This document shows positions 1 through 17,060 of a stretch of DNA of 64,000 nt, in pieces. The position numbers and the translations under genes are program-made. This stretch comes from Amoebophrya sp. A120 (lineage: Eukaryota; Protista; Dinoflagellata). The stretch spans positions 154,982 to 218,981 of the forward strand of contig CAJINV010000019.1 in NCBI GenBank assembly GCA_905178155.1. The letters are read 5' to 3'. The notes under the pieces are model-generated. The model did not search any database, was not told the DNA's origin, and saw nothing but the letters and a program-made list of their open reading frames with translations. The stretch's first letter is position 1; every line of letters starts with the position of its first letter.

Positions 1-230
1 GTACTCGTGCTTGTTTCCCTTCCTCCGACGCCCCTGGCGGCCTTGGTCTGTTGTATGTAGGGCACGCGGTTCGCCCGTGCGCCCGCAGCAGAACCAGGCC
101 GCCCCCGTCCGCTGGCGCCTCCGGGCGCTGGCGGGCGGGCCGGTGAGGGGAACAGAGCTGCGACGTGAGAAGTACTCGCGCTTGTTTCTCTTCCTCCGAC
201 GCACGCCCCTGGCGGCCTTGGTCTGTTGTA
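1..230. repeat. Direct repeat of about 56-59 bp, period 171 bp
   Basis: gtactcg(t/c)gcttgtttc(c/t)cttcctccgacg..cccctggcggccttggtctgttgtat occurs at 1-56 and 172-230. Confidence 0.85.
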
Positions 231-1689
231 TTTAAGAAGAGCCCCGCAGTGAAATGAATGGGCACGGCCGACAAGTGAACACGAAGACACTATCGCCGCC
301 GTTCCATCGCGCACGTACTCCACTAGCGCAAGGCCCAGCCCCACTCCTGGCCTGTGAAGTGTTTGCTTAAATGTGCGACGATTGCAACATCTGGAAAGAT
401 CAGTGCCCAGCTTCTTCGAAAAAGCTCTTCCTGAACGCAAAGACTTTCCGTGTCTGGGTCTGTGTCTATTCTTTTGATTCGAAAGCAAAACGATGAAGCT
501 CACCACACCGAAACGCGCTGACGTTTTCGCGTGAATTTCTTATCTTTGTTCGCGAAAAGCAAAAGAAATAGAGAAGAGGAGGACGATGGTGATCCGCAAG
601 AGAACGGACGTCAAGGCGATCAAGTATGAAGCGACGCCGATGCAAGTAGATTGATTTACTTTCCGACTCTTCGCGAGTATTCTCGTTGACGTAATTGCTA
701 AAAGGCCCACGGCTAGACACTTGCTCCGCGTATTCTCTTGGGCACAATAATGCAGGAAAATTACAAAAGAAAGAGAAGCAGCACTATGCAGCTTCGCGAG
801 ACGTACGCTCCGCGAAAAATGAAAAATCCGCACCGTTGCAGTTCCGTGAGAATCGCTCTGCTTTACTCTTTCAAAAAAGCGCGACTATTGTGGGCGAAGT
901 TTCGCCGAAGATCTCCGCGAAGTAGTAGTGATCAAGAAGAATCTGAAGAATAAAGAAAAATAAATAAGATCAGGCGCCTGCTATCTAGAATCGCAATAGC
1001 ATGCAGCCAGCTCATAAAAATCGCACCGCTCAATCATCTCCGCCGTTCTCTCAAAAACCAACTGACATATATGAACAAATCACATCTATACTCGTAGGCA
1101 CTCACAGCAGAGGGCCGGTCCTTTCTAGAGCAAAAACCCTCGCCATTTTCTGCAGCAAACGAACAGGACAAAGAGGAAAACCAATAAAGAAACAGGAGCG
1201 AGCTAGTTCTTTTCAGTATTTAGCAGCCCATGCCCGATAAGCCGCGCCGTTATTTTCGACTTGTAGAGAGTGAAGAAGCATTACAGATTTCATTCATTTC
1301 CGTTTTCTTTCGTCTCTGTGAAATTGGTCGCATCTGAGGAGGTTTCGACTTGCCCCGTATTCCACTACGTCTCTGCAATAAAGACAGACAAGAAAGATGC
1401 CGCGCCCGGGTGCGAAAGCGAAGAAAAGGGCGGCGGCCAAGGATGCCGGCGAGATATGCAATGCGTGCGTGCCTGGGTCTGTGCGGGTTCCAGCTCTGTC
1501 ATGCATGGCCTGCCTGGCCCTTGATGTTTGACGCGCATGACTTTGCATCTTTTGCATTTTCTCCGTTGTTCGTTCGGTGCGGCTTCTTGTAGTCCCCGAC
1601 TCTATTGCGAGCATTTGCAACCAGACAGGCCCAGGCTGCCTTGCTTTTGATATTCGACTATCAAGCGGGACACGAGATACGGGCCGCCG

Positions 1690-4037
1690 AAAAAGGGCCC
1701 GCGAAGCGGCAAGGGGGACCAAGCAGGGAGCTCGTCTGAAGGTATCCAGCGGCAGCCTCCTCCGCCAGCCTCGGCAGCCGCCGCAACAGCCACCGCAGCA
1801 ACCACCGCAGCAGCCACCGGAACAGTTTCGAAGAGCGCGCCCCAAGGTATTTGCTTAAATATGTAGCCGCCTGCCCCTCGGTGGGTTGCTTGTTTGTATG
1901 AATTCGCTCGCGGTCCGACGCTGTGTTTTGTGCGTGTGCCCATGTAAAGCCTTAAGACAAGAGGCCCTACGTATATGCCTCAGACTATGCTCAGCGTTGA
2001 CGCAAAAGATCCTACGCATACGCCTCGGACGATGTCAGCAAGCCTTTCCATTTCTCGTTATCAGGTAAGCGAAACGCGCCTCCGTCGGAAATGGAGCAGC
2101 CAGACGATGCGGGGCAAATAGGTAGCCAGCGACGGCCGCCTCCGCCAGCCTCGGCACCCGCCGCAGCAGCCACCGCAGCAGCAGCCGAAACAGTCCCGAA
2201 GAGCGCGTCCCAAGGTATCTGCTTGAATGTGTAGCCGCCTGCCCGTCGGTGGGTTGGTTGTGTGTTCGAGTTCGTTAGCGGTCCGTCGCTGTGTTTTGTG
2301 TGTGTCGATGTGAAACGAGCCTTATAACGAAAGACCCTATGCGTATGCCTTTGACTATCCCAAGCGCCTACGCTAAAGATCCTACGCATACGCGATGCCA
2401 AGCTTTTCCCATTTCTCGCTATCAGGTAAGCGCCACGCGCCTCCGTCGGAAGTGGAGCAGGAAGACGATCCGTGGAATACTATTTGCCAGGCGGTTGCAA
2501 TTATCGCGCGCAAAAGTGTCGGAGTCTGGAGGCAAGGAAGTTTGTCATGCTAGCTTCGTTAATATGGCGCCTCCGATTGTTGTGCATATTACCCAAAAGT
2601 CCCGGCGTTCTGATTCTACTGTCGCTCAAATTTACAAGATTCCAGACCCGCACACTTTTGCAATCGATAGAAAAAGAAAAAGGGCCGCAGTTGAACACGG
2701 GGACGGTCATCTTTTGCGCCAAGTGCCAAGGCCAGGGAGATTGGTATAACATTCCGGAGCCCGATCTCTCGCCGCCCCTCCTGGACAGCGACTGGTGGTA
2801 TCCGACCCGGAAGGACACCGAGTGGAGTGGTAAGATCGGGCGGATGAAGTTTGCCTTCCTCCCGAAAGTGGACAGCTTTTACAGGCTCAGCCCCCTCGAC
2901 GACCGTTACGATGGCTGGAGCGAGCGGTTTCTCAAGGAGTTGAAAACCAAGCAGGACGCTGACCGCAGGCAGTTCGGCTCGCAGTGCGCCGTGGTTGTCC
3001 GGTGCGAGGGCGTGGCGCGGGGGAAAGGGCGGGGGCTGTGTGGCGACGACTACACCTGGGTGTCGGGTGTTCCCCTGTTCGCGCGCGGCGGCTGGGAAGA
3101 TGCGGGGGCCCGGGCACATTACTCAACAACCTGGGAGGCGAAGGCCACGTGGCAAAAGGCCGGACAGGTATGCTCGTCGCCGTTTTCGTTTTGTGTTTTA
3201 TTTCCCCTCCTGCATGGTGTTCCTTGCGTTGCAATATGTCGCGCCGCGTTCATGTCTCTGCCTGGCTTCTATCCTTTGGCTTGCGTTTGTGCTATTCCCA
3301 TGCTGTGCATTATCCCGACAGGTTCACACGGACTTTCAGCATGACGAGTTGAGGCGCATCCTCGGGCTCCGAAGTCGTCAGCTGCGGCTCCCCTTGGAGA
3401 AGCAGTGCTATTTCGCGGGGACGGGTCTCGGGTATTGATTTTGTTCGTTTTTTTGTCCTGCATGGAATGGCATAGGCCGGCGGTTGTGGTTCGATTGATA
3501 GTCATGTCTCCGATGCTCTGCGGCAGTCGCGCGCACTTTTTATTTTGCATTCTCGTGCCTGAGAGTTAGTTTTCTCGATGTCATGTGCTATCTATTGCGC
3601 CCAGGTTTCGCGGCCACCAAAAAACTTTGCGGCTGCAGAAGGACGGGCACTGCTTTCGCGCCATGTCGGAGGAAGCCAGACTGGAGGAGCGGCTGGTCGG
3701 CAAGACGACCGCCTTCGAGAAGGAGCAGGCGTTCAAGGAGAGGGAGCTGCGGCACATGGTGAGCTCCTGGGGCACTCTCAGCGAATGCGGTGGCGGCATG
3801 CCCGAGGAACTGCAGCGAGAGATGAGCAGCCTGAACGATGAGCAGTGGAAGCTGGCGAAGGAGATCCGGAAACTGTCGGAGGAGCTCGGACGGCGCAGGT
3901 TCCCGGACTATGAGGATGCCGCAAGCGGGGAGGACGGCAAAAACGACCGAAGTGGCAAAGATGAGGAAGACGAAAACCCGGAGGACTATATAATCAGATG
4001 GCTGGAGCTCGAGGAAAAAATAAGAGCACGCGACTGA
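1690..4037 (+). CDS. Multi-exon hypothetical protein of the element (Ala/Pro-rich repeats, CxxC motif, coiled-coil/acidic C-terminus); start uncertain
   Basis: GC3-rich coding segments within ORFs 2472-3344 and 3585-4037, separated by T-rich GT-AG-like introns. No family recognised. Confidence 0.45.
1741..2461 (+). repeat. Tandem duplication of an approximately 360-380 bp exon+intron module
   Basis: 1741-2101 and 2121-2461 share cctccgccagcctcggca..gcagccaccgcagca..gaagagcgcg.cccaag|gtat and ..tatcag|gtaagcg..cgcgcctccgtcggaa.tggagcag. Confidence 0.85.
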
Positions 4038-4764
4038 TGTGGTTTTTGAGTCTTGATAGGATTACATAGCTGGTTACTTACGTAAGTTGATGGATGGAAT
4101 ACGAAGAGAAAGTGGCGCGGATGTTCACGAATTGAATCCAAGCACTTGACTGAAGTGGTTTTTGAATCGGTTGGATTGGAAGAGCCATGGACTATGGGTT
4201 TGATTGGAAGATCCATTCAGGCGGACACCTGCCGCCGGATTTTTCCGCTTAAATCAGGCTAAAAAATTGCTAAAAGCAAAAGACTAGGCCCCCGGCGGCG
4301 TTTCGTCAGTGCGCGCGCCGGGCCCTGGCTTTGTCCCATGCCTTGCGCCGTGGCCGCGCAGGCATTGGGCCGGCCACCTAGCATCCCCCGGGCTTTGTTT
4401 GCCCTCCCTCTTTCAGTTTTGCTCGTCGGTGGCGTTTGGGTTCTCCCTGTGGGGTTTCTGCGTTCTCATGGCTTGGCCGGGGCGTCGCCAAAGCAGTCCA
4501 GTTCCATCCTTTGGGGCCGCCGCTACGTCCGTTTCATGGCGGATCGCCAGCAGCGGCATTTGCCAGCCGCCCGGAGCAAGGAAAGTGCTCCAAGCAGGAC
4601 AGCGCCTGGGTGAGGCCCGGGGCGACCCTCTTTGGCGGGGGAGACGTCGTCTGGGGTGAAGGTGTTTGTTGTTCTGCTCGGGTTGTTTTCTTGCTTCGGA
4701 CGGCAAGGTTGCGGCTCCTCCGGAAAGGGCCGGAGTTGGGTCCGGAGTTGGTAATTTTCGGCAC

Positions 4765-5001
4765 TGCTAAAATCGGGATTTGGACTGCTAAAACGATTGC
4801 TAATTTGAGTGCTAAAATGCCTGACCCTTGAAAATCGGAACGATTTTCAAGTTTTGGCATTTTAGCACAAAATTAGCAATTTTTTAGCAGACACTTTAGC
4901 ACGGATTTTAGCAGACGAAAACTGCCGCGGCGGGATGTGGTTCCAGGGGATTTAGCAGTGAATTAGCACTGAATTAGCAGACTTTTAGCAGAATTTTAGC
5001 A
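4765..5001. promoter_or_regulatory. Dyad-symmetric iteron array around a hairpin; candidate replication origin or protein-binding array
   Basis: TGCTAA at 4765, 4786, 4798 and 4810. Perfect 11-bp stem CTTGAAAATCG-GAA-CGATTTTCAAG at 4827-4851. TTAGCA at 4862, 4873, 4884, 4896, 4908, 4952, 4963, 4974, 4985 and 4996, spaced 11-12 bp within each block. Confidence 0.6.
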
Positions 5002-6326
5002 GACCGGCCGCCCCCCCAACATCTTGTGAAACGGGGGGAATCGTTGGTGTTGGAGGGGCGATCGCAGGGTCGGGCGTTCGGGAAGGTTCTATGGGAAGAA
5101 CCGCTGCTCAAGTCTGACTGGTCATTCGGGGCGCGAATTGGTGGCGCGCAAGTCCGCCGTCGGGGAGGTGTTTCGGTTTCTCCCGCCCCAGCCCGTCGTC
5201 CTTCCGCCGGCCGGCGCGCTTGCGAGGCCCGCAAGGGGGCCGGCGCGCAAGTAGGCCTGGCCGGGTTTTTCTGAAGGGGCGCCTGCCGTCGCCTCCTTCT
5301 TCCGCCTCGCCTGTCTTCGGGCCCGGGGCAAGGCGGTCGTCTTCCCTTTTTCCCGGTTGTCGCGCGTGCTTCCCGTGTTGCTTTGGGGAAAAAAATTTTT
5401 TAGCACTTTTTCAGCAGCTTTTTAACGAAAAAGCCCGGCGCCCTTTGTCCGCCTGAATCCATTTGGAGGAGTTGCTGGCCATGATAGATAACGCGAACGA
5501 ATGCGATTCCTCGCCATGGACTGAATTAACCCAAGAAGGAACAAAGCCAAAAACTCGCCGCGCTCTGTGTGTTCCGTGCCTGGAAAACAAACCAGGAGCA
5601 GCGTTTTCGTGTTTTTCTCGATCATACAAATGCGCAAAAGACATCGGCTCGAGAAAGTTCGCGGCCTGCACTATTAGACACGCTGGGAAATTAATAGTGG
5701 TCCAAGAAATGCGCTCGCTTTTGAGGCTGTCTGCACTTTGACAGGTGGCAGCTCCAGTGACGAGGCAGGCCAAGAAGCCCTCTCAGACAGTGAGTCACTT
5801 CCAGAGATCCCGCGAGCGGTTTCATTCTCAGAGACTTCACGTCCGTCAGCCAATTCCAGAGATTTCGTCTCTTCATCTTGTAAGAGCCCGCCTCCTTGAA
5901 AATGATGAGGAGAGAGATCCTGCCCGCGGCAACATAACAAGAGAACGATCAAGATCGACGAGCTTCAGAAATTATCTCCCCATCCAGCCGACGGAGATCG
6001 TCCCTAGTAGAGAACGCAATGCCTTGGCGCGGCTGGCCATCTATCAATCTGATTCCCAAAACAAAACAGGAAGAGTGGCGCTGTGTCTGTTTCTCCGTTG
6101 GTTAAGCAAGCGCATTCCATCAGTTCCCTCGCTTATATTATTGCATCCACTGCTATTGTTGCACTATATTGCGCAACCTAAGCTGTCCGGTTATTATCTG
6201 TCTTCATCGCTTTGCTCTGCGTCCGTCTGCATTTCGATAGTTTTTGACTTCTATACTCAGGCCTTCACTTGTATACTCAGACTGATAGCGATTTCTTTCC
6301 TCGCTCGTATTATTTCTATACTCCGA

Positions 6327-7549
6327 ATGGCGCTTTCTGCGAACATGAGCCCGCTCCCCCCATGCGTTGCGAACGCCCTCGCGGAGGCGCAGAAGACAAT
6401 CAAGCCCCGGGGCGACGTCGTGGGAACGCCGGTGCTTGGTAATGGGTTGGGTTTGGCGGATGGGGCGGGGTTCCAGCCGCCGATCTTCCCCGAGCTCATT
6501 TGGGACCCGCGTCAGCGCGTGTGGCGTGCGTGCCCTGTTATCAGGAACGGCGACTGCTGGTATGCCGGGGCGCTCTCCGGTATGTTTTTGGCTAACTCGC
6601 ACCAGCAGAATTTGCGCGCTGGCTAACTTAACATCCATCGGCCGCGCACCGTCAGAATTGGCAACCTAGCTGCGTTTTCGGTGTATGCCTTATATAGATT
6701 CCCTGACTCTTTAGCGCGTGCCATCAGAATTGACAAACTAACTCGCCCAGGTTTGCTGGACCACCCGAAGACCACCGCGAAGCGAACGAGGCGCGAGGTT
6801 TTGGAGACGATCTGGCCCGTGAATTGCTACCAGCAAACACAGGAGCTGATCAACTGGCGGGAGACGCTTCTGGAGGATCCGCACTCCCCTGCCTATGGAT
6901 CCGCACTCCTGGTATTTGAGAGAGCCACCCACTTTTTTCCGGCCGGCCGCTTGTGCCGCAGCTGACTGCTTGCAATAGGTTGCGACCCGAGACAGCCCGT
7001 TGTATATAGTTGCGAGCATTTGCGAGATCTCGACGCTGTTCATTTTTCGGGAGACGTAAAAAAACTAAACCAGGTCGGCGCGGCTGTTCTCCGAGCGCGT
7101 GTGCAGGGTGCTGAGGCGAAAGCGAAGGACTCTGTTGGTAAGCCTTACTTAGCGCGCAGCTGCTTGGGGACCGTTGTGCTTTTTGTTATCTTTGTCCCGC
7201 CTCTAGCTTGCTTTTCAACTGTAGCGATTGGCTGCGTGCATGCTAGTGCAGCGGCCCTGTGTGTGTCGTCCCTCGGCCGGCCTTTAGATTTATTCACTCA
7301 GAAACTTGCTACCTATCAGGTGACAGCGTGATGGAGGCGACGGCAGAGCTACTGCGGATCCGCATCACGATCCTGTACTCCGCGGACGCCGACGATGCGG
7401 AGCGGAATGTGGACCCGCGCGACATCGGTCCGCCCGACGCGCCCGCGGCGCTTCAAATGTGGGCGCACGACTCCCACTTTGACTTGGTCGAGGAGGACGT
7501 GGTGGAGATCGACTATCTTCGGGAAAGCCCCCCGCCCCCTAGGGAGTTT
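6327..7549 (+). CDS. OTU-like cysteine protease domain (spliced); may be the N-terminus of the helicase-polymerase polyprotein
   Basis: Phase-compatible GT-AG exons 6327-6579, 6751-6911, 7074-7137 and 7320-~7549 give PVIRNGDCWYAGALS ... GDSVMEATAELLRIRITILY ... WAHDSHFDLV. This resembles the OTU Cys motif (DGNCLFRALS) and His motif (HYD). Confidence 0.55.
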
Positions 7550-7880
7550 GTTTGTTATGCAGCCCGGCGCCCGTGGGTCTTTGTGATGCAGCTTGCCCGG
7601 GCAGAGCGAGACAGACGCTCCAGACTGATATTGGGCGGGGGGGGTTTCAGCTTCATACCAATTGCACGCAAATTGTTACGCCGGAAGCCGAAGGAACGCA
7701 AATAATTACGCCGGAAGTCGAGGTACTGTCGTAGTAGATTCTTTGAGGCATATTGTCGAGGTATATTCTTTGAGCCAGCTATATATAAGCAGCGCGCATT
7801 CTCTGAGCCAGCTAGAAGCGGCGGGCGTGCTTTGTTTGAGCCAGCTAGTGGCCGAACCTTTTGCCGCAATCACGTCCCAG

Positions 7881-10800
7881 GTTCCGTCCCATTCTCAGAA
7901 AGGAAGCGGAGGCCGCCGGGCTCCGCCCCCGCAGAGAAGCCGCGATCTCCGCCGCAGGCCGCCGAGCGTCATGGTTCTCGACAGCTCCCAGAGCCCGGAC
8001 ATTGATGACCTTAACCACTTTCCACCGCTCGGGCCTGCGAAACAGAGCGCGCCGAAGGGGAGCAGCGTCGCCCGTGGAGGACAGGTAGTTTTGCTGTTGG
8101 GCACGTGTTGCATGTTGTTCGTTAATTGTCAGTCCCTATCTTTTGCGCCCTTAGGTTCTGATAGATCTGCGCCGATTCACTCACTTGGTTTCCCATTTTT
8201 CCACAGGCGCCTCGCCCGGCGCGTTTGTCTCCGCCGAAGCGGAACGACGGGAAGGCGGCCCCGGCTGAGCGACTGGTATCGGTTTTGCTAAAAAGTTAGT
8301 TTGCTGGCTCGGCTAGTTTCCTTGGCTCGTTCTTTTCGTGCAGGCCAACGCCCTTGGGTCTATTACCATGCGCGAATATTCTTAAACAGCTCCCCGCCGA
8401 GGGCAATACCCCCCGCCGGAGCAGGACGCCGCGCAGAAACCCCGCACTGGACCAGGGCTTTCTCCACATCGACTCTCCGCCGCTTGGTCTGTCTCCGTCC
8501 CCGCATGGCGCGCCGCAGGTGCTCCGCGACTACGAAATGGGCGTCGGTGGCTTCGGCCCGGCGGTCCAGGACCCAGACTCCCCGGCCGTTCCCGTCGCAT
8601 CCGCCCCGGCTCCGCCGGGCTATCCTCGGAGCGGCCCCTCGGCACCGCAGGCCAGCAGCTCGGCGCCAGGCGATCATGCTGGCGACTCCCGCCCCGCTGA
8701 TGCCCGGGGCGCTGCTCCGGACCCCCTGCAGCTTCCCGCGGGGCCGCTGCGCGAGTTCCTCACGGCCGCCCCCGACGAAAATGATGCGGCCCTCCTGCCG
8801 CCGAAGCGTCCCGAGCATGTGCAGGAAATGCTGAACAAGATCGACGCGGCACACGCGGACCTGAAGCAGCGCGCGCTGCCCGGGACAGTCGTGGACCAGG
8901 TTTACGCCCGCGTAGTGGTCGTCGCCGACCTCTTGAGTAGCCGCGTCCGCGGAAACGCTGGAGCCTATGAGCCAGACCTGATTCGTGACATCCTCGCGGC
9001 GATGGGTTTGGAGCGGACTTTCCGCGCCGAGCCGGGCGACTTGTTCTCGCGCTATGACCCGACCAAGTCCGGCGCGGCCGGGACGGCGAACTGGTGGAGG
9101 CAGGAGTCGAAGAGCAAGTCCGAGTCTTTGCACACGTATTTCTTTGCGCGGGATTTCGGAAAAATCCACCACGCGGCGGCGTTTCTTCTTCAGAAGGCCT
9201 ATGGCCAGGACGTGCAGCCGAGTTTTGCGGACATTGTCGCCCAGAATTGCTGCGGCTGGAATCTGCGGGCCTTTCTGAAGCACGCCTCGGCGGAAAACGT
9301 AAGAAGCACGATGGGAAAGCAGAAGCTATCAAGTGCAAAAGTGTCTGGGCCCGGAAGGGTGCGGTCTGTCATGCTAAATCTGAAGCATGTGGGAGCCTGC
9401 TTGCCCTGATAGATTACCAAAAGCATTCCAGATGGACTTGCTTCGTTTTCCCTTGCCCTTTCAGGCCCACACGCCTTTGCGTTCGATAGTAAGAATACGG
9501 AAACAACATGACGCAGGGCTTCACGCAGGGCGTAAGCCAGGGCCTGGTCGAGTTGATTGAGTGCCTGAAGAAATGGGAAGAGTCGTACAGAACGGCGGAC
9601 GCGAAGGTCCTGCAATGGTTTGCGATCGACCGGTGGAGAAGGCCGGGGCACGCATTTTCCGACGGTTCGCTCTGCCGGGGCCGCGGCAACAAATTCTGCT
9701 GGATCCCGCGCGTTGACCGGGCCGACGCGGATTTCCGCGATGACTACTTTTACGATGGCTGCCACATGGACCTCCAGCCGGATGCCCCGGCGAACCTGAA
9801 CGAGCTGCGGGCCTTCGAAAAGGAGCTCCGCAAGTATTTCGGCGGCGACCCGCACGTGCTCTGTGTCTTCATCATCGCCGCTGCGATAGTTTTGCTCGGT
9901 GGGGCCCCTAGTCGGTGGCTGTATTGTTACAACGCCAGCGGCTTCGGCAAGACAACTTGGAACGCGTTTCTGGCCTGGGCGATCTCGCCGAAGAATCAGA
10001 CGGAGCACCACGCGTTCTCTGCGGAGTGGCTTAGCAGTTCGGACCTTTTGCGGGCCGCCGCCTGCGACATTGCGCAAGCAAAGGTGACCGTCACGCCTGA
10101 AGTCAGCAAGCCCTTCAACAACCTCTACATCAAAACCGTTGTCGACCCTGTCTGCAAGGTGGAGGCGCGAATGCTTTACAGTGATCCCGTTCAGCTTTGC
10201 CTCGCCTATGCCTTGCGGCTTTTAGAGTCGAACCCTGATGACTGGAAGACGTTGCACCTCAAGGAGCTTCCCTCGGACTTCGTCGCTTATTTCTCGCGCA
10301 TCATCATCCTAGCCAGGCAGTCCGGGGCCTTTACGCGCAACGAGAGGAACGCGAACAAGACCAAGGCAGAGCAGAGCTACATTAGTAAACTGCAAACCGA
10401 GGCCAATCGCAGGCAGCTCATCCGGCTCGTAGTTGCGTACGCGTCGAAATGGGCGGCCTTCAGCGACGTCCCAATCATGGAGATGCTGCACGATCTGAAC
10501 CGTCTCGACCGTCTCCTGGGTGCCCATTTTTTTGCAGACACTGGCAACTTCTGCTACGATGTGCTTCTCAAGGGCCAGCTTTCTCAAGCTGAGCGCGACA
10601 AAGAAGACGTGAAGCTGGTGCTGACGCAGCTCGCAGCGTATAACGCGAACGCGGAAGTCCCTGCTGGTGCAGAGAAAGCGAGCGGAGGGAGTGGCGTGGT
10701 TTCGGGTTGCTCCTGGGGGTGGGAGAAGGACCAGAAGCTCATGGGGAACGACAAGCCCGCGGCGCAGCAAAAGCAAGCCGTTCAGAATCTGGACGCGGAC

Positions 10801-12450
10801 GGGTCCTGGTTGCGCTCGCAGGTTTGGCAGCCACAGCGTGGGAAGTTCGACGGCGCCGGGCGGCCCTACCCGAAGTTCTTTGCTGCGCAGGTGCGGAGCC
10901 GCGTCCCGCGCTTCTGGGGCAAGCGCGGGCGAATGCGCGGCGGCCCCTTGCCAGTTAATGTCGACGGCCTCCAGTTCCACCGGGCCGTTTTACGCGCATC
11001 CGCCGCCGGCGAGCAGGACGAAAACGAGCGCGGCAAGGAAGTTGCCGAGCGGGTCCGAAATATTTCCACGATGCTGGAAGAAAACTGCGGAGCCGACGGC
11101 ATGCACCGCGCTGCCTTGGCCTGGCCAAAGTTGCTACTTGATGGGGGCGAAGACGTGCAGAAGATGGGCTCACGCAGGTACGCCGCCGGGAGTGTTCAAG
11201 GAATCTCGCAGGCCGGGCGCGGGGCCGGGTTCTACAGCATCACGCCGGGGCAAACATTCGGAGAGGTCGACATCAAGAAGAGCCACCTGCGGTGCCTCGT
11301 CGGTGTCTGTGACCGCATTTTCTTCGGTTCAGTGGTTGGGCCGCCGCCGCTTGCTGCGCTCCGCCGCTACCTGGCCAACCCGGAGGAGGTCCACGCGGAG
11401 GTGGAGGCCGACGCGGGCTTCCAGGTTTTGGGGATCAGCGCGAAGGAGCTCTTTCTGCAAATTCTGTACAAGGCCGGGAAGCGCAACACGGAGATGCAAA
11501 AAATCTCCGCGAGGTCGGTCCTCCTCTTTGCAAGGGATGTGGCGACTTGCGTGGAAATTTTGCGGCAGGCGCATCCGCCTCTCGTCGCCTTTTTCGAAAA
11601 ACGGGCAAGGGAGGAGAAGAGAGGCCCGCAGGACAAGTTCTTTCGCGATCCGCTTCCATCGTTGCTGTCGTATTTGATGAACGACGAAGAAAATGCGATC
11701 TGTTCCTCGATCGAAAACAAAATCCGCGACCTTGGCCGCGAAGGGGTCGAGACTTTTCCAATTTACGACGGCGTCTTCTGCAATCTCGACCTCCTCCCGG
11801 CGGATTTTCTTTCCAATTGCGTGGAGCAGATTGCCATCGAAATGGGGTACGAAGTCGGCCTGAAGCTCAAGCCCCTGGCACCTGCCGGCTGGATGGTTTC
11901 GCCGTTGCACCGCCTCCCCGCTCTCCGCGCGGTGCAGCTGAAGGGGCCCGGTGGAAATAACGCAAGCGGCCCAGCTCCGGCGCACCCGCTTGGCTGTTTG
12001 TTGCACCAGGTCGGCCTGGACCACATGCAGTTGCCCTCTGGAGGACCGGGCGCGACCGCCAACGAGCTTGCGGGCTCGTTTGGCTTGCACCTGAAGCACG
12101 TGGCCTCTGGGTTGCAGCTTCCGGAAGAGGGAGCAGCGCGGCACTTCGTCCTCCAGGAGATGGCGGTCAGTGTTTCCGGCCCGGGCGAAGTTCCGGCCCC
12201 CACCGCCGTCTGGGAGGGAGAAACCGCGCGCCGCTGGTGGATCGTGGACTTTATTGGTGACGAAAACGCGGCAACTGTTTTCTTCTCGGAGGGTTCGGCG
12301 GAGGTTGGCGGCGCAGGCCTCGAGGCCCTTCGTGGTTTTCTCCGTGGAAATGGCGCGCTCATCGTCTTCCAGCAGGTCCGCCCGGGCGCGGCGCAGCAAG
12401 ACCCGGAAGAATTGCCTGAAGGAGAAGTTTATAGAATTACAGCGCATTGA
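7881..12450 (+). CDS. D5-like SF3 helicase fused to a C-terminal family-A-related (TVpol-like) DNA polymerase/primase
   Basis: Exons 7881-8084, 8207-8275, 8390-~9325 and ~9493-12450. Helicase motifs: Walker A NASGFGKTT (9931-9957), Walker B VTVTPE, D5-type IKTVVDPVCKVEARMLYSDP, motif C LLESN, Arg finger FSRIII. Polymerase motifs: SRRYAAGSVQGI, motif A EVDIKKSHLRCL (D at 11269), motif B AKELFLQILYKAG (K at 11443), SLLSYLMNDEENAI, motif C PIYDGVF (D at 11767). Confidence 0.75.
9327..9488. mobile_element. Degenerate family-A introner inside the helicase-polymerase gene
   Basis: Left end TATCAAGTGCAAAAGTGTCTGGGCCCGGAA, right end TTTCAGGCCCACACGCCTTTGCGTTCGATA. Removing 167 bp (element + 5) fuses ORF 8354-9409 in frame to ORF 9508-12450. 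Confidence 0.65.
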
Positions 12451-13354
12451 TCTAGGTATGAAGCAGGAGTCCCCTGCGCATATTGGTGCACTCAGACTCG
12501 GAAACTGTTTACGTCGTGTTTACATTACAGGCCAACCTTTCTTATCTTAACCCACACTCGGAAGTTGTTTACCTCATTTTTTCAAACTTACGCAGCCACG
12601 CGCGGAATAGGCTCGCGCGTGGCCTGTCCTTTCTATAAAAACGCAGAGAGTTTGTATCGAGCTAGCGGCTATGATCGTCAGCATCAATCTGACCAAGAGC
12701 ACGCAGACTAACTATGGTCGTCAGCATCTATTCAAGAACCAAGGTCGAAAATAATAAGAGAAGCGATACCATTGCGAGAAGGAATATGCCAAGGGATGGG
12801 CGGCACATGTCTCGGAAGAAAGCACCGCGCGAGCCCGCGTTCCAGGTGCCCGCGAAAAAAGCCGGCGCGGAGAGAGGTGTTCTGTCTCCGACTATGTATA
12901 GGCATCAGCCTGGCGGAAATCGCGGCGAGATCTGCTCTGAGGCAAGGAACTGCAATAGCCCGCGCGCCGTAAATAAAAAGCCAGCGCGATGAAAGTCGGG
13001 AGATCAGAAAATAGCAAAAACAAAAGCGATCCCCAATATATTAAGTTCCTCCGTCGCTGAGTTTCGCTGTGCTTAGAAAATGAAGCAAGGAAAGAAGGGC
13101 CATGAGCATGATCAAAGAGGTTGGCTTTGCTGAGAAAATCACTCAAACCCATAACACAGGGACGAGCTTCATCAAGATTGGGACGCTTTTTAATGAGAAA
13201 GAACCTTCGCGATTGCTAGGCCCGCTCTTACCCCCGTAGTTTGTTTAGTTAGAAAGAATTTTCGCGACTCTCTTTCCTGTCTTCTCTGTGCAATTTATAC
13301 ACATTGTCTAGATTTCTGCGCGCACACTCTCCCGCCTTCGCTGAACTAACAACA

Positions 13355-15900
13355 ATGAAGCGCGCGAATGTTGCCCAGCAAAACGCCAACCGGAGGGCGG
13401 CTGCTGGGGACCGGCTGCCGGCCCTGAACTTCAGCCCGACCGGGAAGAAGCAGCGGAAGGACTTCCCCTACAAGCAAATCACGCGCGAGGCCATTAAGGA
13501 CAAGGTAAGTCGTTGTAAGTAGCCCGCCTTGCTGCCGTTGGCCGTTTTTTCCATTCCTCTGCTGCTTTGGGTTTGCGATCTTTGTCGATCTCTTATGGAA
13601 CGAGATAAAACCACTCAAACAGCTCTGGTTTCGGGAAACCACACGCAAGAGGACCAAGGAGGCCCACGCCTGCAGTCTGTGCGGCATCGTCACCGACGAG
13701 AAAAAGTACGTCGTGCACAACAAGCAGACCCACGAACACCTTTTCAACTCCTGGAGGTGCCACGGTAACTGCCCGGCGCCCTACAAGGGGGACATGCAGA
13801 AGCTCTTCGGCTGCAAAGATTACAAGAGAGAGGAGGACATCTTTTGCTATGCCGCGCCGCTCGAGGGATCGGAGAAGCACGCCTACAGTATTGCGCTAGC
13901 CTGATGCGTGTTCCTATCTTTTTTCCTAGCAAGCTGCCGCGCCTGTTTAGTTTTTCAACCCGCTAGCGGAAATCTTCAAAACAACGAAAAACCCCCGGCA
14001 TCAGGTAAGTCCGGGTATGTCCATGTGACCGCCGCGCAGCTGAAACTGCGACAGCCCAAGCTCCGCGCTGACAAGTCTCTCAAGCTCGACGAGATCACGC
14101 GCCGGGAGGCGAGCGACCTGGTGAAGATGTTTTTCAGCAAGGCCCAGACCAAGCCGGACACCGTCCTGAAGTGCCCGAGCTGTGGCAAGGTGAGGCAGAT
14201 CAGGGAGGTCAGTAGCGCGGGCGCCTCGTTGCACTGCAGCAGCTGTGGCACGGCCGAGGCGTTCAATCTGTTCTCTCCACCTGGCCCGGCTGGCGGCGCG
14301 CAGCGGAGCACGCTGTCAGTGGTGGACATGATCCGGGTCGTTCGAAGCTTCGCGTATGGGGACACGGTGGATCGTGCCTGCAAGGACCTGAGTATATATA
14401 CCCACCCTGTTTTTTTTGGCCCTGGAGCCTTGCTTTTTGTGCGGCCGGGGGTCGCCTGGTCTTGCGGTTGTTTCGAGAAAAAGCGACGAGATTCGGCGCC
14501 TTAGCGAATTCAATCGTCCTCAAAATTTTTCAGATGTCGGGCACGCCACCCTCAAGGAGTACTGGAGCAAGCTCGTCAAGGCGGCCGCGGCCATGTACCT
14601 GCAGGGCATGGCGGGCGTGCGGTTTCCCGGGCGCGTGTGTTTGGAAGCGGATGAGGCGGCCTTCGGGTGCGTTACGAAGTTGGTCGCCGCTTCGCCGAGC
14701 AAAATGGGCAAGGCCAAGGCCGCAGCAGGCGCCGCCGGGGCCGCGAAGGCTAAAAGCGCCGCGGTGGAGCAGGAGATGGAAAAGGAGTACACGTCGCGGA
14801 TAATTCTCGGCACAATGCAGCGGGGCCGCCCCCTATGACAGCGAGACTTCGCGCCGCAGTCACATCCGAGGCATTTTGTGCGGTGTTCTCCCTTGCAAAA
14901 TGTGTCCGGTGTGACTGTGGCGCGCAGTTTTCCCTTCACACCCTGAGACGCTGCTCTTGTTCGACCTCGGCCACCAGCCGACGCGGCAGCACAGGCGATT
15001 CCGGCCGGTATGTTCTTTGGTTGCTTTTCCTAAGTATGTTGGTGCGCAGGTTCCTTTGCTTTCCGGGGTGCCTATTGGGTGCGGTTTTCCGTCACCTCTT
15101 TCATCGGCAGGCATTGTCGCAATTTTCCCCAACAGGTTCAGCAGAAGATCTGGCGGTGGATTTGGAAGAAGAAAATCGAGCCGAAGCTGGAAGGGTTGCA
15201 CCACGAGGACGGGCACATCTTCCTTGCCACAGATTCCGCAAAGTGCTACGAGATAGCGGCGCCATATACTGTATAGCTTTTCGCGTTTTTTTGTCTGTGT
15301 GTTCACCTTCCTCATTTGTAGCCTGCCGCCCATCTTCCAGGCGTCGGCCTTTCTACTTACCCAACCAACTAAAACCCCGCAGCACCTCCAAGTCAATCAC
15401 CAGAAGAAGGAATACTGGAAAAAGTTGCGGGACGCCGATGAGATCCCGCACTTCGGCAACAACTGGATGGAGTGCGTGTGGAAGCACATTCGTCGCCACA
15501 TCAAGGTACCCGCGGGGCGTACAGCCTTCGCTCTTTTCGCTTTTTGCCTCTTTCCATCTATGCCGTGTATGTTGGCGATCCCGTTGCCCGGCGCGGTCGC
15601 TGTTTCTTTCGACGTAAATTGACCACCCCCAAAATACAGGCGCGCTTCTCCGGCTTGACGCGTTCCCTCCTCTTGGAGAAGCCGGATTACGTTTACATGG
15701 GAGCGTATTTCTGGCGGAACGTTCTGGAGGTGGATGAAGTCGTCAAGGAGTTCATCGCGCAGCTCCTGCGGCCCAGCGCCGACACCTCCTGCGCGATCCA
15801 GGTCCCGCCGGACGGCTATGGGCCGGGGGACGAGGTTTCCTCTGACGATGACGACGCGGCCATTGTCGACGACGACTCCGATACCGATGAGGACAATTGA
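13355..15900 (+). CDS. Merlin / IS1595(ISXO2)-family DDE transposase with N-terminal zinc ribbon, multi-exon; one apparent +1 frameshift
   Basis: CPSCG..CSSCG ribbon; VCLEADEAAFG (D 14650; cf. VEIDES), IILGTMQRG, FLATDSAKCY (D 15232; cf. SDxWxxY), HLQVNHQKKEY (cf. HxxVNH), GNNWMECVWKHIRR (E 15470; cf. TNxIExxWxxxK), YMGAYFWR (cf. YLxEFxWR). GT-AG introns, e.g. 13505-13622. Linkage of the first two exons is less certain. Confidence 0.8.
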
Positions 15901-16309
15901 GCCGCTCGGGCGGGCCTAGAGAGGTCGCGAGCGTGTGCCCCTCCTCCGCCGCAGCGGCAGCCATCCCGGTCGCCTATCCATCGCTGTGAGGAGTCGAAGC
16001 TTGTAGAGAATTCGCTAACTTTTCTGCTCTCATCGTTGTGGTGTGGGCTTTTCATCTATTTTCGCGCGCCCTCGTTTCGGAGATTTTCACTTATTGTCTA
16101 CGTTCGTCATTGCTGCCGTTCTCGCATCTCTTCGCTCATTATGTATTCGAGAAACTAGCCGCCATCTCTTGCGATGTTGCTTCTGCGTCGTGTTCCCCCT
16201 ATGGGTGGACCTTGTTCGAGGTATACTAACTGACCAAACAGCGGAAGCGCTTCTGCTTACGCCTGTCGTATTGATGCCAAAAGCGGAAAAGCTAAGGCAG
16301 GGCCTCCCT

Positions 16310-16725
16310 GCGGCTTTTCGCGTTTCGCAACTCTGGCGGTGTTCGTAGCTTTCGCGAAAGAAAGACGGCAAGGAGCCCGATGGCGTACCTCGGTCGCTGT
16401 TTCTCTGTCGCTTTTCGCGTTTCGTGTTTCGCAGTACTGGCGGCGTTTTCGGCTTTCATAGTACACGGAAACCAATGAGCCTAGTGGCGTACCTCGGTCG
16501 TTGTTTCTCTGTCGTTTTTCGCGTTTCGTGTTTCGCAGCACTGGCGGCGTTTCCGCCTTTTTTAGTATAACAAAAGCAATGAGCCTAGTGGCGTACCACC
16601 GTGAAAGTTCCCGGTCGCTTTTCGCGTTTCGCATTTCGGGAGCCGCCTCCCCCTTCTCTTTGCTTACTATATTAATTATTTAAGGAATAGGCTTTGTATT
16701 TCTTTCGCTTTTCGTGTTTCGCAAT
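16310..16725. repeat. Imperfect tandem repeats of about 100 bp (4-5 units); probable subterminal repeats of the element
   Basis: (g/c)ttttcgcgtttcg recurs near 16313, 16410, 16513, 16617 and 16707; tggcgtacc(tcggtcg) recurs near 16381, 16484 and 16588. Confidence 0.75.
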
Positions 16726-16763
16726 TCAAGCAAGGAGGCCAGCTACTCTCACACTTTACACAA

Positions 16764-16790
16764 CACACCCACACACACACACACACACAC
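16764..16790. repeat. (CA)n microsatellite
   Basis: cacacccacacacacacacacacacac. Confidence 0.8.
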
Positions 16791-17060
16791 CAAAAACGCC
16801 CCTCATGCTATCGCTTTCTTCTATTTTCTGTGTTCCGAAGGGATCCGCGTTCTCACCAAATCACGATAGTAATCCAAGCCGTTGCACTTGTTGCAGGTAA
16901 AAAAAAGGTAGGTGTTTCGCCTTTAATTCTGCTTATTTGGCCGCGTGCCAACAACAACAACATCGTGATGATGCTTTAGTACGGTTCATCAAAAAAGCTA
17001 GTTTTGAAGGTATGACAAGAATGTTGATGACACGTATGGTGCCCGTGGGCATGCAGATGC

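Follow-up and report, generated by a model that had tools for sequence, protein, structure and literature searches.

The TGCTAA/TTAGCA dyad described here marks the midpoint of a non-coding element of 1,240 bp that is bounded by terminal inverted repeats (TIRs). The window, a 64,000-nucleotide stretch of Amoebophrya sp. A120 DNA, is the whole stretch that was analysed, and the 1,240-bp unit is nested in it within a ~16-kb element that carries an SF3-like helicase/PolA frame and a presumably Merlin-like transposase gene. The unit is very probably an independent non-autonomous transposon. Its dyad is tentatively read, from the combined analyses, as the helicase-loading origin of a non-autonomous satellite of self-copying transposons. 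The initial annotation had proposed the replication origin of the element, or an internal transposase-binding or terminal-junction structure. The first of these is wrong as stated, because the dyad belongs to a separate element with its own TIRs and target-site duplication, whose sequencing depth is roughly threefold that of the helicase-polymerase gene. The features of the unit are as follows.

4211–4216, forward strand: target-site duplication ATCCAT, left copy, 6 bp
4217–5456, no strand assigned: non-coding TIR element of 1,240 bp with the dyad at its centre
4217–4275, forward strand: left TIR, with 11 perfect terminal bases and one exact motif copy, at 4268
4755–4821, forward strand: left arm of the dyad, four TGCTAA and one degenerate slot
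4827–4851, no strand assigned: central hairpin, perfect, with an 11-bp stem and a GAA loop
4856–4920, reverse strand: right inner block, five TTAGCA, mirroring the left arm
4952–5001, reverse strand: right outer block, five TTAGCA at exact 11-bp spacing, without a mirror on the left side
5398–5456, reverse strand: right TIR, 75% complementary to the left TIR over ~60 bp, with an exact TTAGCA at 5400
5457–5462, forward strand: target-site duplication ATCCAT, right copy, 6 bp

The dyad has the layout first reported for it. The central hairpin (4827-4851) is perfect, and the outer pair 4810-4821 / 4856-4867 consists of exact reverse complements whose match extends to 13 bp. There are four TGCTAA copies to the left (starts 4765, 4786, 4798, and 4810; steps 21, 12, 12) and ten TTAGCA copies to the right in two blocks of five. 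The inner block starts at 4862, 4873, 4884, 4896, and 4908 (steps 11, 11, 12, 12), and the outer block follows after a gap of 44 at 4952, 4963, 4974, 4985, and 4996 (four steps of 11). The 11-12 bp spacing given for the right-hand copies holds in both right blocks; in the left arm it is interrupted by one double step of 21. All 14 of the 14 sites are strictly convergent, and the hexamer and phase are kept while the spacer bases vary. The AT-rich island is likewise real: positions 4765-4915 have a GC content of 36% vs 64% and 68% on the two sides, and the 46-bp core (39% GC) is set between flanks of 64-68% GC.

No hexamer clusters more densely anywhere in the 64-kb window than this one does here, with 14 copies in 240 bp, and the dyad is the window's only inverted array of at least 3+3 copies. 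The hexamer occurs 35 times across the window vs 26.7 expected; it is barely enriched there, and the dyad signal is therefore local. Folded as single-stranded DNA, 4745-5010 has a z of -9.6, and 0 of 200 shuffles were as good. An Rfam search returned only mir-548, at 34 bits vs a cut-off of 90. A structured RNA family was rejected, as this match, below the gathering score, is a by-product of the hairpin. A telomere repeat and the bacterial CIRCE operator were both rejected as the identity of the dyad because spacing and orientation do not fit.

The hairpin loop has 622 bp of the 1,240-bp element to its left and 617 bp to its right, which places the dyad within 3 bp of the element's centre. The longest ATG-started frame of the element is 108 codons, and the element lacks a transposase gene of its own. 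Each TIR contains three roughly 11-bp-phased copies of the dyad motif, mostly degenerate. The TTAGCA copies near 4271 and 5400, at first described as stray, are not stray; they are at 4268 and 5400, inside the TIRs. Within the left TIR, positions 4258-4273 also match 4873-4888 of the dyad in inverted orientation, without a mismatch over 16 bp. Ends and centre thus share one motif.

An exact 6-bp duplication would be found at the TIR edges by chance about 1 in 1,000 times (estimate). A length of 6 bp is preferred, though 2, 4, or 8 bp (with one mismatch) also fit and give the same empty site. When the 1,240-bp unit is removed, a frame is open across the empty site for 110 codons. The exact duplication and the frame open over the empty site together indicate an insertion. 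A search with the TIR pattern gave one hit, which was attributed to chance.

The outer ends of the element begin TCAGG. Membership of CACTA/En-Spm by ends was rejected on these termini, and the internal CACTG/CAGTG pair (4762/4960) has no duplication. The reiterated subterminal repeats of CACTA/En-Spm elements are nevertheless present in the unit, as three phased copies per end. Merlin/IS1595 elements have GG termini and an 8-9-bp duplication. No duplication fits ends placed at 4220/5453, and this identity was rejected as well. A decayed fold-back of the whole 1,240-bp unit was rejected because the two stretches that link the TIRs to the dyad show no complementarity to each other (score -155 vs -127 +/- 13 for shuffles). 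The dyad as a nested copy of the element's own ends was also rejected, as its borders have no copy of the outer terminus.

The copy evidence comes from two DNA runs of one sample, which is possibly the assembly's own source. Depth, which is not equal to copy number, was 62.5 and 144.9 for the dyad contig vs 21.6 and 43.7 for the contig over 5428-11688, and 22-35 and 42-48 for other seemingly single-copy contigs. The depth ratio of the dyad to the helicase-polymerase region was 2.9x and 3.3x in the two runs of this one sample. The contig over 5428-11688 is one letter off the window and starts ~30 bases inside the right end of the element. A second right flank is found in another contig, which tracks the element to 5456 and then enters other DNA with an introner-like repeat; the short side of this joint has only 23 letters. 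These data point to about three copies of the 1,240-bp element with at least two right flanks. The segments 1026-4168 and 11659-13670 have depths of ~1.3-2.3x, with the helicase-polymerase core and transposase at 1x, so part of the excess may stem from a second, deleted copy of the large element. In the RNA runs X4 and X5, only 2 and 0 reads fell on 18 kb.

The same sample contains a contig that matches only the transposase exons (13868-15739) and the 104-bp end repeat (16377-16665). This contig indicates that a diverged second family of the large element is present in the sample.

The surrounding large element is made up of the following parts, with tentative ends at ~517-576 and 16692-16743 (about 520 to 16740).

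9327–9488: introner-like insert that separates the 985-codon frame from the upstream frame 8300-9325
9493–12450, forward strand: 985-codon frame, with a weakly supported SF3-like ATPase region ahead of a family-A DNA polymerase fold
13626–15771, forward strand: intron-split zinc-ribbon/DDE-type transposase gene, homologous to the C-terminal part of P0003
16313–16727, reverse strand: subterminal repeat array of 104-bp units, with a motif unlike that of the dyad

The tentative ends form a weak inverted match (score 36 vs at most 29 in 100 controls), and no target duplication was found at them. The dyad motif is absent from the right end of the large element. No capsid gene was recognised in the large element. 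Several local direct repeats are present in or next to the large element: a high-depth 60-bp pair at the start of the window (1-239), a 380-bp tandem pair (1740-2475), degenerate short pairs immediately before the insertion site on its left side (4025-4216), and a 35-bp pair behind the polymerase gene (12490-12584). Diverged introner-like inserts at 9327-9488 and 2502-2669 lie inside large-element frames and lack a 5-bp duplication.

The 985-codon frame has five distant relatives among 1.84 billion representatives. One of these, P0003 (Amoebophrya sp. AT5.2 g6326.t1), matches both the 985-codon frame and the gene 13626-15771, so the pairing of helicase-polymerase and transposase is conserved. 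P0003 is a predicted protein of Amoebophrya AT5.2 in which a helicase-like/PolA part is fused to a Merlin-like transposase. In P0001 the C-terminus is of a different DDE type, which we take from its motifs to be MULE/KDZ-like; this suggests swappable transposases. The transposase gene of the window is presumably Merlin/IS1595-like, judging by motifs. Pfam gave only the IS1595 zinc ribbon for it, with an E of 0.09, below the cut-off. Relatives of P0002 were not encoded in the viral contigs searched.

A structure model of the 985-codon frame was built from six sequences and has a mean pLDDT of 38, with ~55 over residues 588-795. Family-A polymerases were found throughout the listed PDB matches (best E 4.5e-5), and virophage replication proteins were among the best matches to viral models (Zamilon, E 1e-7). 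According to this model, the frame has a PolA fold. Word-based protein searches brought up no relatives, whether with the 985-aa frame, with its polymerase part, or with alignment A1, and Pfam, PHROGs, and PDB sequence searches were blank. The ATPase ahead of the PolA fold is weakly assigned as SF3-like, on an Atlas feature value of 0.89 to DUF5906 clusters and an hhalign SF3 match over the Walker A region with a probability of 5%. DUF3987 identity was rejected for this ATPase, which has no match to DUF3987, and the 64-kb window has no DUF3987 gene. No winged-helix domain is visible in the model of mean pLDDT 38, which is too poor in that region.

The large element and the TVpol/PolA-SF3 replicases (Zamilon V6BPG7, Qinghai Lake virophage) have the PolA fold in common. 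Unlike in virophage and polinton-like TVpol replicases, the helicase-like region of the large element precedes the polymerase and the transposase is Merlin-like. To our knowledge, no origin has been identified for TVpol/PolA-SF3 elements or for dinoflagellate helicase-polymerase-transposase elements. For such elements of dinoflagellate relatives, self-copying is assumed, and we know of no cis-acting origin.

Several known systems resemble the dyad. Origins of SaPIs have opposed iterons round an AT-rich region, are bound by the winged-helix domain of SF3 or SF6 helicases, and include the PriRep5 iteron TGCAAC(C), as given in the accessible text of bioRxiv 10.64898/2026.10.17.759575. The replication protein of pRN1 is described as requiring a stem-loop origin (accessible part of PMC4234260). 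The dyad shares opposed penta- or hexanucleotide iterons and an AT-rich core with SaPI-type origins (SF3 PriRep5/Rep1, SF6 Rep2) and with arrays at the DUF3987 and DUF5906 primase-helicase genes of bacterial integrative elements. It also shares with them a TGC-type hexamer, inner and outer blocks, and gaps in multiples of ~11. Bacterial dyads directly follow the helicase gene, are bounded by a 9-bp outer block on each side, and are usually without a perfect hairpin. In contrast, the window dyad is ~4.5 kb upstream of the helicase-like frame, has one 11-bp outer block, and has a perfect hairpin in its 46-bp core. It further differs from the SaPI type in its eukaryotic host and gene-less TIR carrier. 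Strict membership of the SaPI-type origins was rejected, as the layout agrees but the position does not. The comparisons with SaPIs, pRN1, and helicase loci indicate that the dyad is built like a helicase-loading origin. The SF3-helicase origin first suggested for it thus stands in part: the layout has comparative support and the neighbour has a PolA fold, but the SF3 match of the ATPase is weak.

A relaxed dyad pattern returned 0 viral, 78 metagenome, and 21 GTDB loci, and neither it nor the exact hairpin pattern matched the viral contigs. By blastn and tblastx, the 78 metagenome loci include no homologue of the element or of window positions 1-17000. After 40 loci of a dispersed eukaryote-like 11-mer satellite were set aside, 59 remained. 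The copy-rich loci numbered 33 of these 59, and 26 of the 33, near-duplicates included, adjoin a DUF3987 helicase gene, often with a primase or integrase. Copy-poor loci adjoining DUF3987 numbered 0 of 26. DUF3987 was shown to be a 5'-3' helicase of mobile elements (PMC11724360, accessible text), a function predicted in the available part of PMC5862659. Among the seven copy-rich loci without DUF3987, L028 stops at a contig edge and L091 is unexplained.

A second test used helicase loci picked by protein family, to avoid motif-based selection. A 3+3 inverted array was present in 14 of 35 DUF3987 loci (13 of 34 without L111, from the seed genome) and in 8 of 30 SF3/DUF5906 loci. Pooled, these bacterial SF6 and SF3 helicase loci, chosen independently of the motif, had the array in 21 of 64 cases, as against 0 of 325 shuffles. 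The hexamer differs among these arrays (TGCGAC, TGCGCC, TGGCAC, and others). No independent second array was found in 21 pattern-picked non-helicase loci (84 kb), where two extra matches are the same dyad shifted by one base. Gaps follow multiples of about 11 in both the window dyad and the DUF3987-linked dyads.

In a clade of bacterial islands with DUF3987 primase-helicases, a TGCTAA/TTAGCA dyad of stereotyped form comes right after the gene, no more than about 100-250 bp from its end (L007, L008, L010, L011, L012, L022, L049, L067, L075, L083, L085, L088-L090, L094-L097). These dyads are composed of inner blocks of 3-4 copies at 10-12 bp, gaps of 33-55 bp, and outer blocks of 2-3 copies at 9 bp. 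This dyad is a candidate origin. A literature search found no description of a DUF3987-associated TGCTAA dyad. Another search, of openly accessible main texts, found nothing on the 1,240-bp element or on a TTAGCA origin; in the accessible text of PMC8263062 the hexamer occurs only within a primer.

The hexamer recurs in several settings: helicase elements, the ends of transposons, sites next to integrase genes, and a satellite. L005 (1821-1968) is a CACTA-ended element of 148 bp, and L017 is a 1,214-bp element (176-1389) with a 2-bp duplication; both have TGCTAA subterminal repeats. L002, L037, and L058 resemble them, and a search for their ends found none. TGCTAA is thus a subterminal repeat of eukaryote-like CACTA-type elements, and the hexamer is not diagnostic. 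Its presence in 2+2 sites adjacent to tRNA or integrase genes and in a eukaryotic satellite further indicates a common iteron. The 2+2 inverted TGCTAA sites are by integrase genes or tRNA-like ends (L042, L051, L079-L082, L084, L086, L087, L092, L098, L099); several are in Desulfovibrio genomes, and they are possibly integrase arm sites. The 11-mer satellite (L001, L004, L006, L013-L016, and 33 more) forms facing arrays in eukaryote-like contigs, where 20-40 bp of flank is often duplicated between and outside the arrays. These duplications suggest template-switch synthesis.

Binding of a transposition protein is a close alternative, only a little less likely than the origin. Here the repeats would bind a transposase or a TnpA-like helper, and the dyad would be a central internal enhancer that pairs the ends, or the remnant of a nested MITE with facing subterminal arrays; there would be no origin. 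A central site that aids end pairing is found in phage Mu. The three phased copies in each TIR and the exact 16-bp match of TIR and dyad argue for this reading, and an exact, rightly oriented hexamer in a TIR would arise by chance in only ~1% of cases. L005 and L017 have the same hexamer as subterminal repeats, and TnpA is described as binding the subterminal repeats of CACTA elements (PMC2613891, accessible part). The 1,240-bp element shares with non-autonomous TIR transposons of CACTA/En-Spm type, such as L005 and L017, its TIRs, duplication, non-coding sequence, probable presence in several copies, and end regions in which this hexamer is repeated in phase. Unlike them, it has a best duplication of 6 bp, non-CACTA outer ends, and repeats that are mostly central and purely convergent round a perfect hairpin; these ends and this arrangement weigh against a transposition-protein array. 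Neither a target duplication at the CACTG/CAGTG pair (4762/4960) nor an outer-terminus copy at the dyad borders is present, which also weighs against this reading.

Orientation and motif position pull in opposite directions. Convergent sites make up 181 of 186 in 16 DUF3987-linked dyads vs 44 of 57 in five transposon-end-like eukaryotic arrays, although L005 alone has 7 of 8. On this comparison of sequences, orientation (14 of 14 in the window dyad) leans to an origin. The motif inside the element's own TIRs leans to a transposition protein.

The dyad might instead be the native origin of the 16-kb element, with the 1,240-bp unit as a built-in origin cassette kept in deletion derivatives. This is improbable. 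The large element has no other origin-like array, and the raised depth of 1026-4168 and 11659-13670, with genes at 1x, fits a derivative that keeps the dyad and loses the genes. The exact 6-bp duplication and open frame indicate an insertion, however, the second contig exits the right end at 5456 into other DNA, and the end repeats of the large element have another motif.

Neutral and junction readings are unlikely even when taken together. The array could be a functionless minisatellite expansion or the site of a host chromatin protein, carried along by the MITE, and phased A-tracts may just bend DNA. The dispersed 11-mer satellite, which has the same hexamer inverted in 40 eukaryote-like metagenome loci, is in keeping with this. 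Hexamer and phase are kept as spacers vary, though, and the array is laid out symmetrically about a perfect hairpin, no more than 3 bp away from the element's centre, making a neutral or chromatin-protein reading very unlikely. A circular or linear form whose ends meet at the dyad, as also raised in the initial annotation, or one with a hairpin telomere there, is hardly credible: the perfect hairpin is at the midpoint of arms equal in length, but these have no residual complementarity, and a junction of the element's own ends would read TTAGCA then TGCTAA, the reverse of the observed order.

For the preferred reading, a helicase-loading origin, the following mechanism is proposed. A helper protein would bind the TGCTAA repeats, which are spaced by one helical turn, to the left and right of the hairpin and melt or extrude the AT-rich hairpin core, after which the helicase would load. 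The PolA domain would copy the excised or integrated element, and the transposase would insert it via the TIRs. One DNA-binding domain may read both the ends and the centre, since in P0001 and P0003 the helicase, polymerase, and transposase are parts of a single predicted protein. As the helper, a relative of the surrounding 16-kb element is more probable than that element itself, whose right end bears a different repeat. In the fullest version of this proposal, which we offer with more reserve, the unit would be a eukaryotic satellite mini-transposon made up of two ends and a phage-satellite-type origin. It would be copied and moved in trans by self-synthesizing helicase-PolA-DDE transposons of an undescribed class. 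For that class, the dyad would be the first origin to be identified, and one protein would read dyad and ends.

The 1.24-kb non-autonomous element, with two ends and one central array, offers a short and exactly defined substrate on which binding and replication can be assayed. Should the array be an origin, eukaryotic DNA transposons would include a case of the phage-satellite strategy of origin plus ends with borrowed enzymes. Should it serve a transposase, it would be an enhancer in a MITE that is ordinary except for the unusual central placement of this enhancer. The comparison also brought out the recurrent, precisely phased TGCTAA dyad behind one bacterial DUF3987 clade, as a candidate origin of those islands.

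Host frames in the window encode HEAT-repeat and calpain proteins and are interrupted by inverted-repeat elements of 140-290 bp. Paired copies in the window have a 5-bp duplication in 20 of 25 cases. Two families (about 250-290 bp and 140-155 bp) occupy 17322-61679, share terminal bases and 5-bp duplications, and break host genes such as a GCN1-like HEAT gene and the calpain gene. Their depth is in the thousands to tens of thousands. They resemble the introners described in Amoebophrya (accessible text of PMC7789003 and PMC12130899). Like the 1,240-bp element, Amoebophrya introners are non-coding, with inverted repeats and direct repeats in the same genome (PMC7789003, accessible text). The introners of the window differ from the 1,240-bp element, with its 6-bp duplication and central dyad, in their length of 140-290 bp and in having other ends and motifs.
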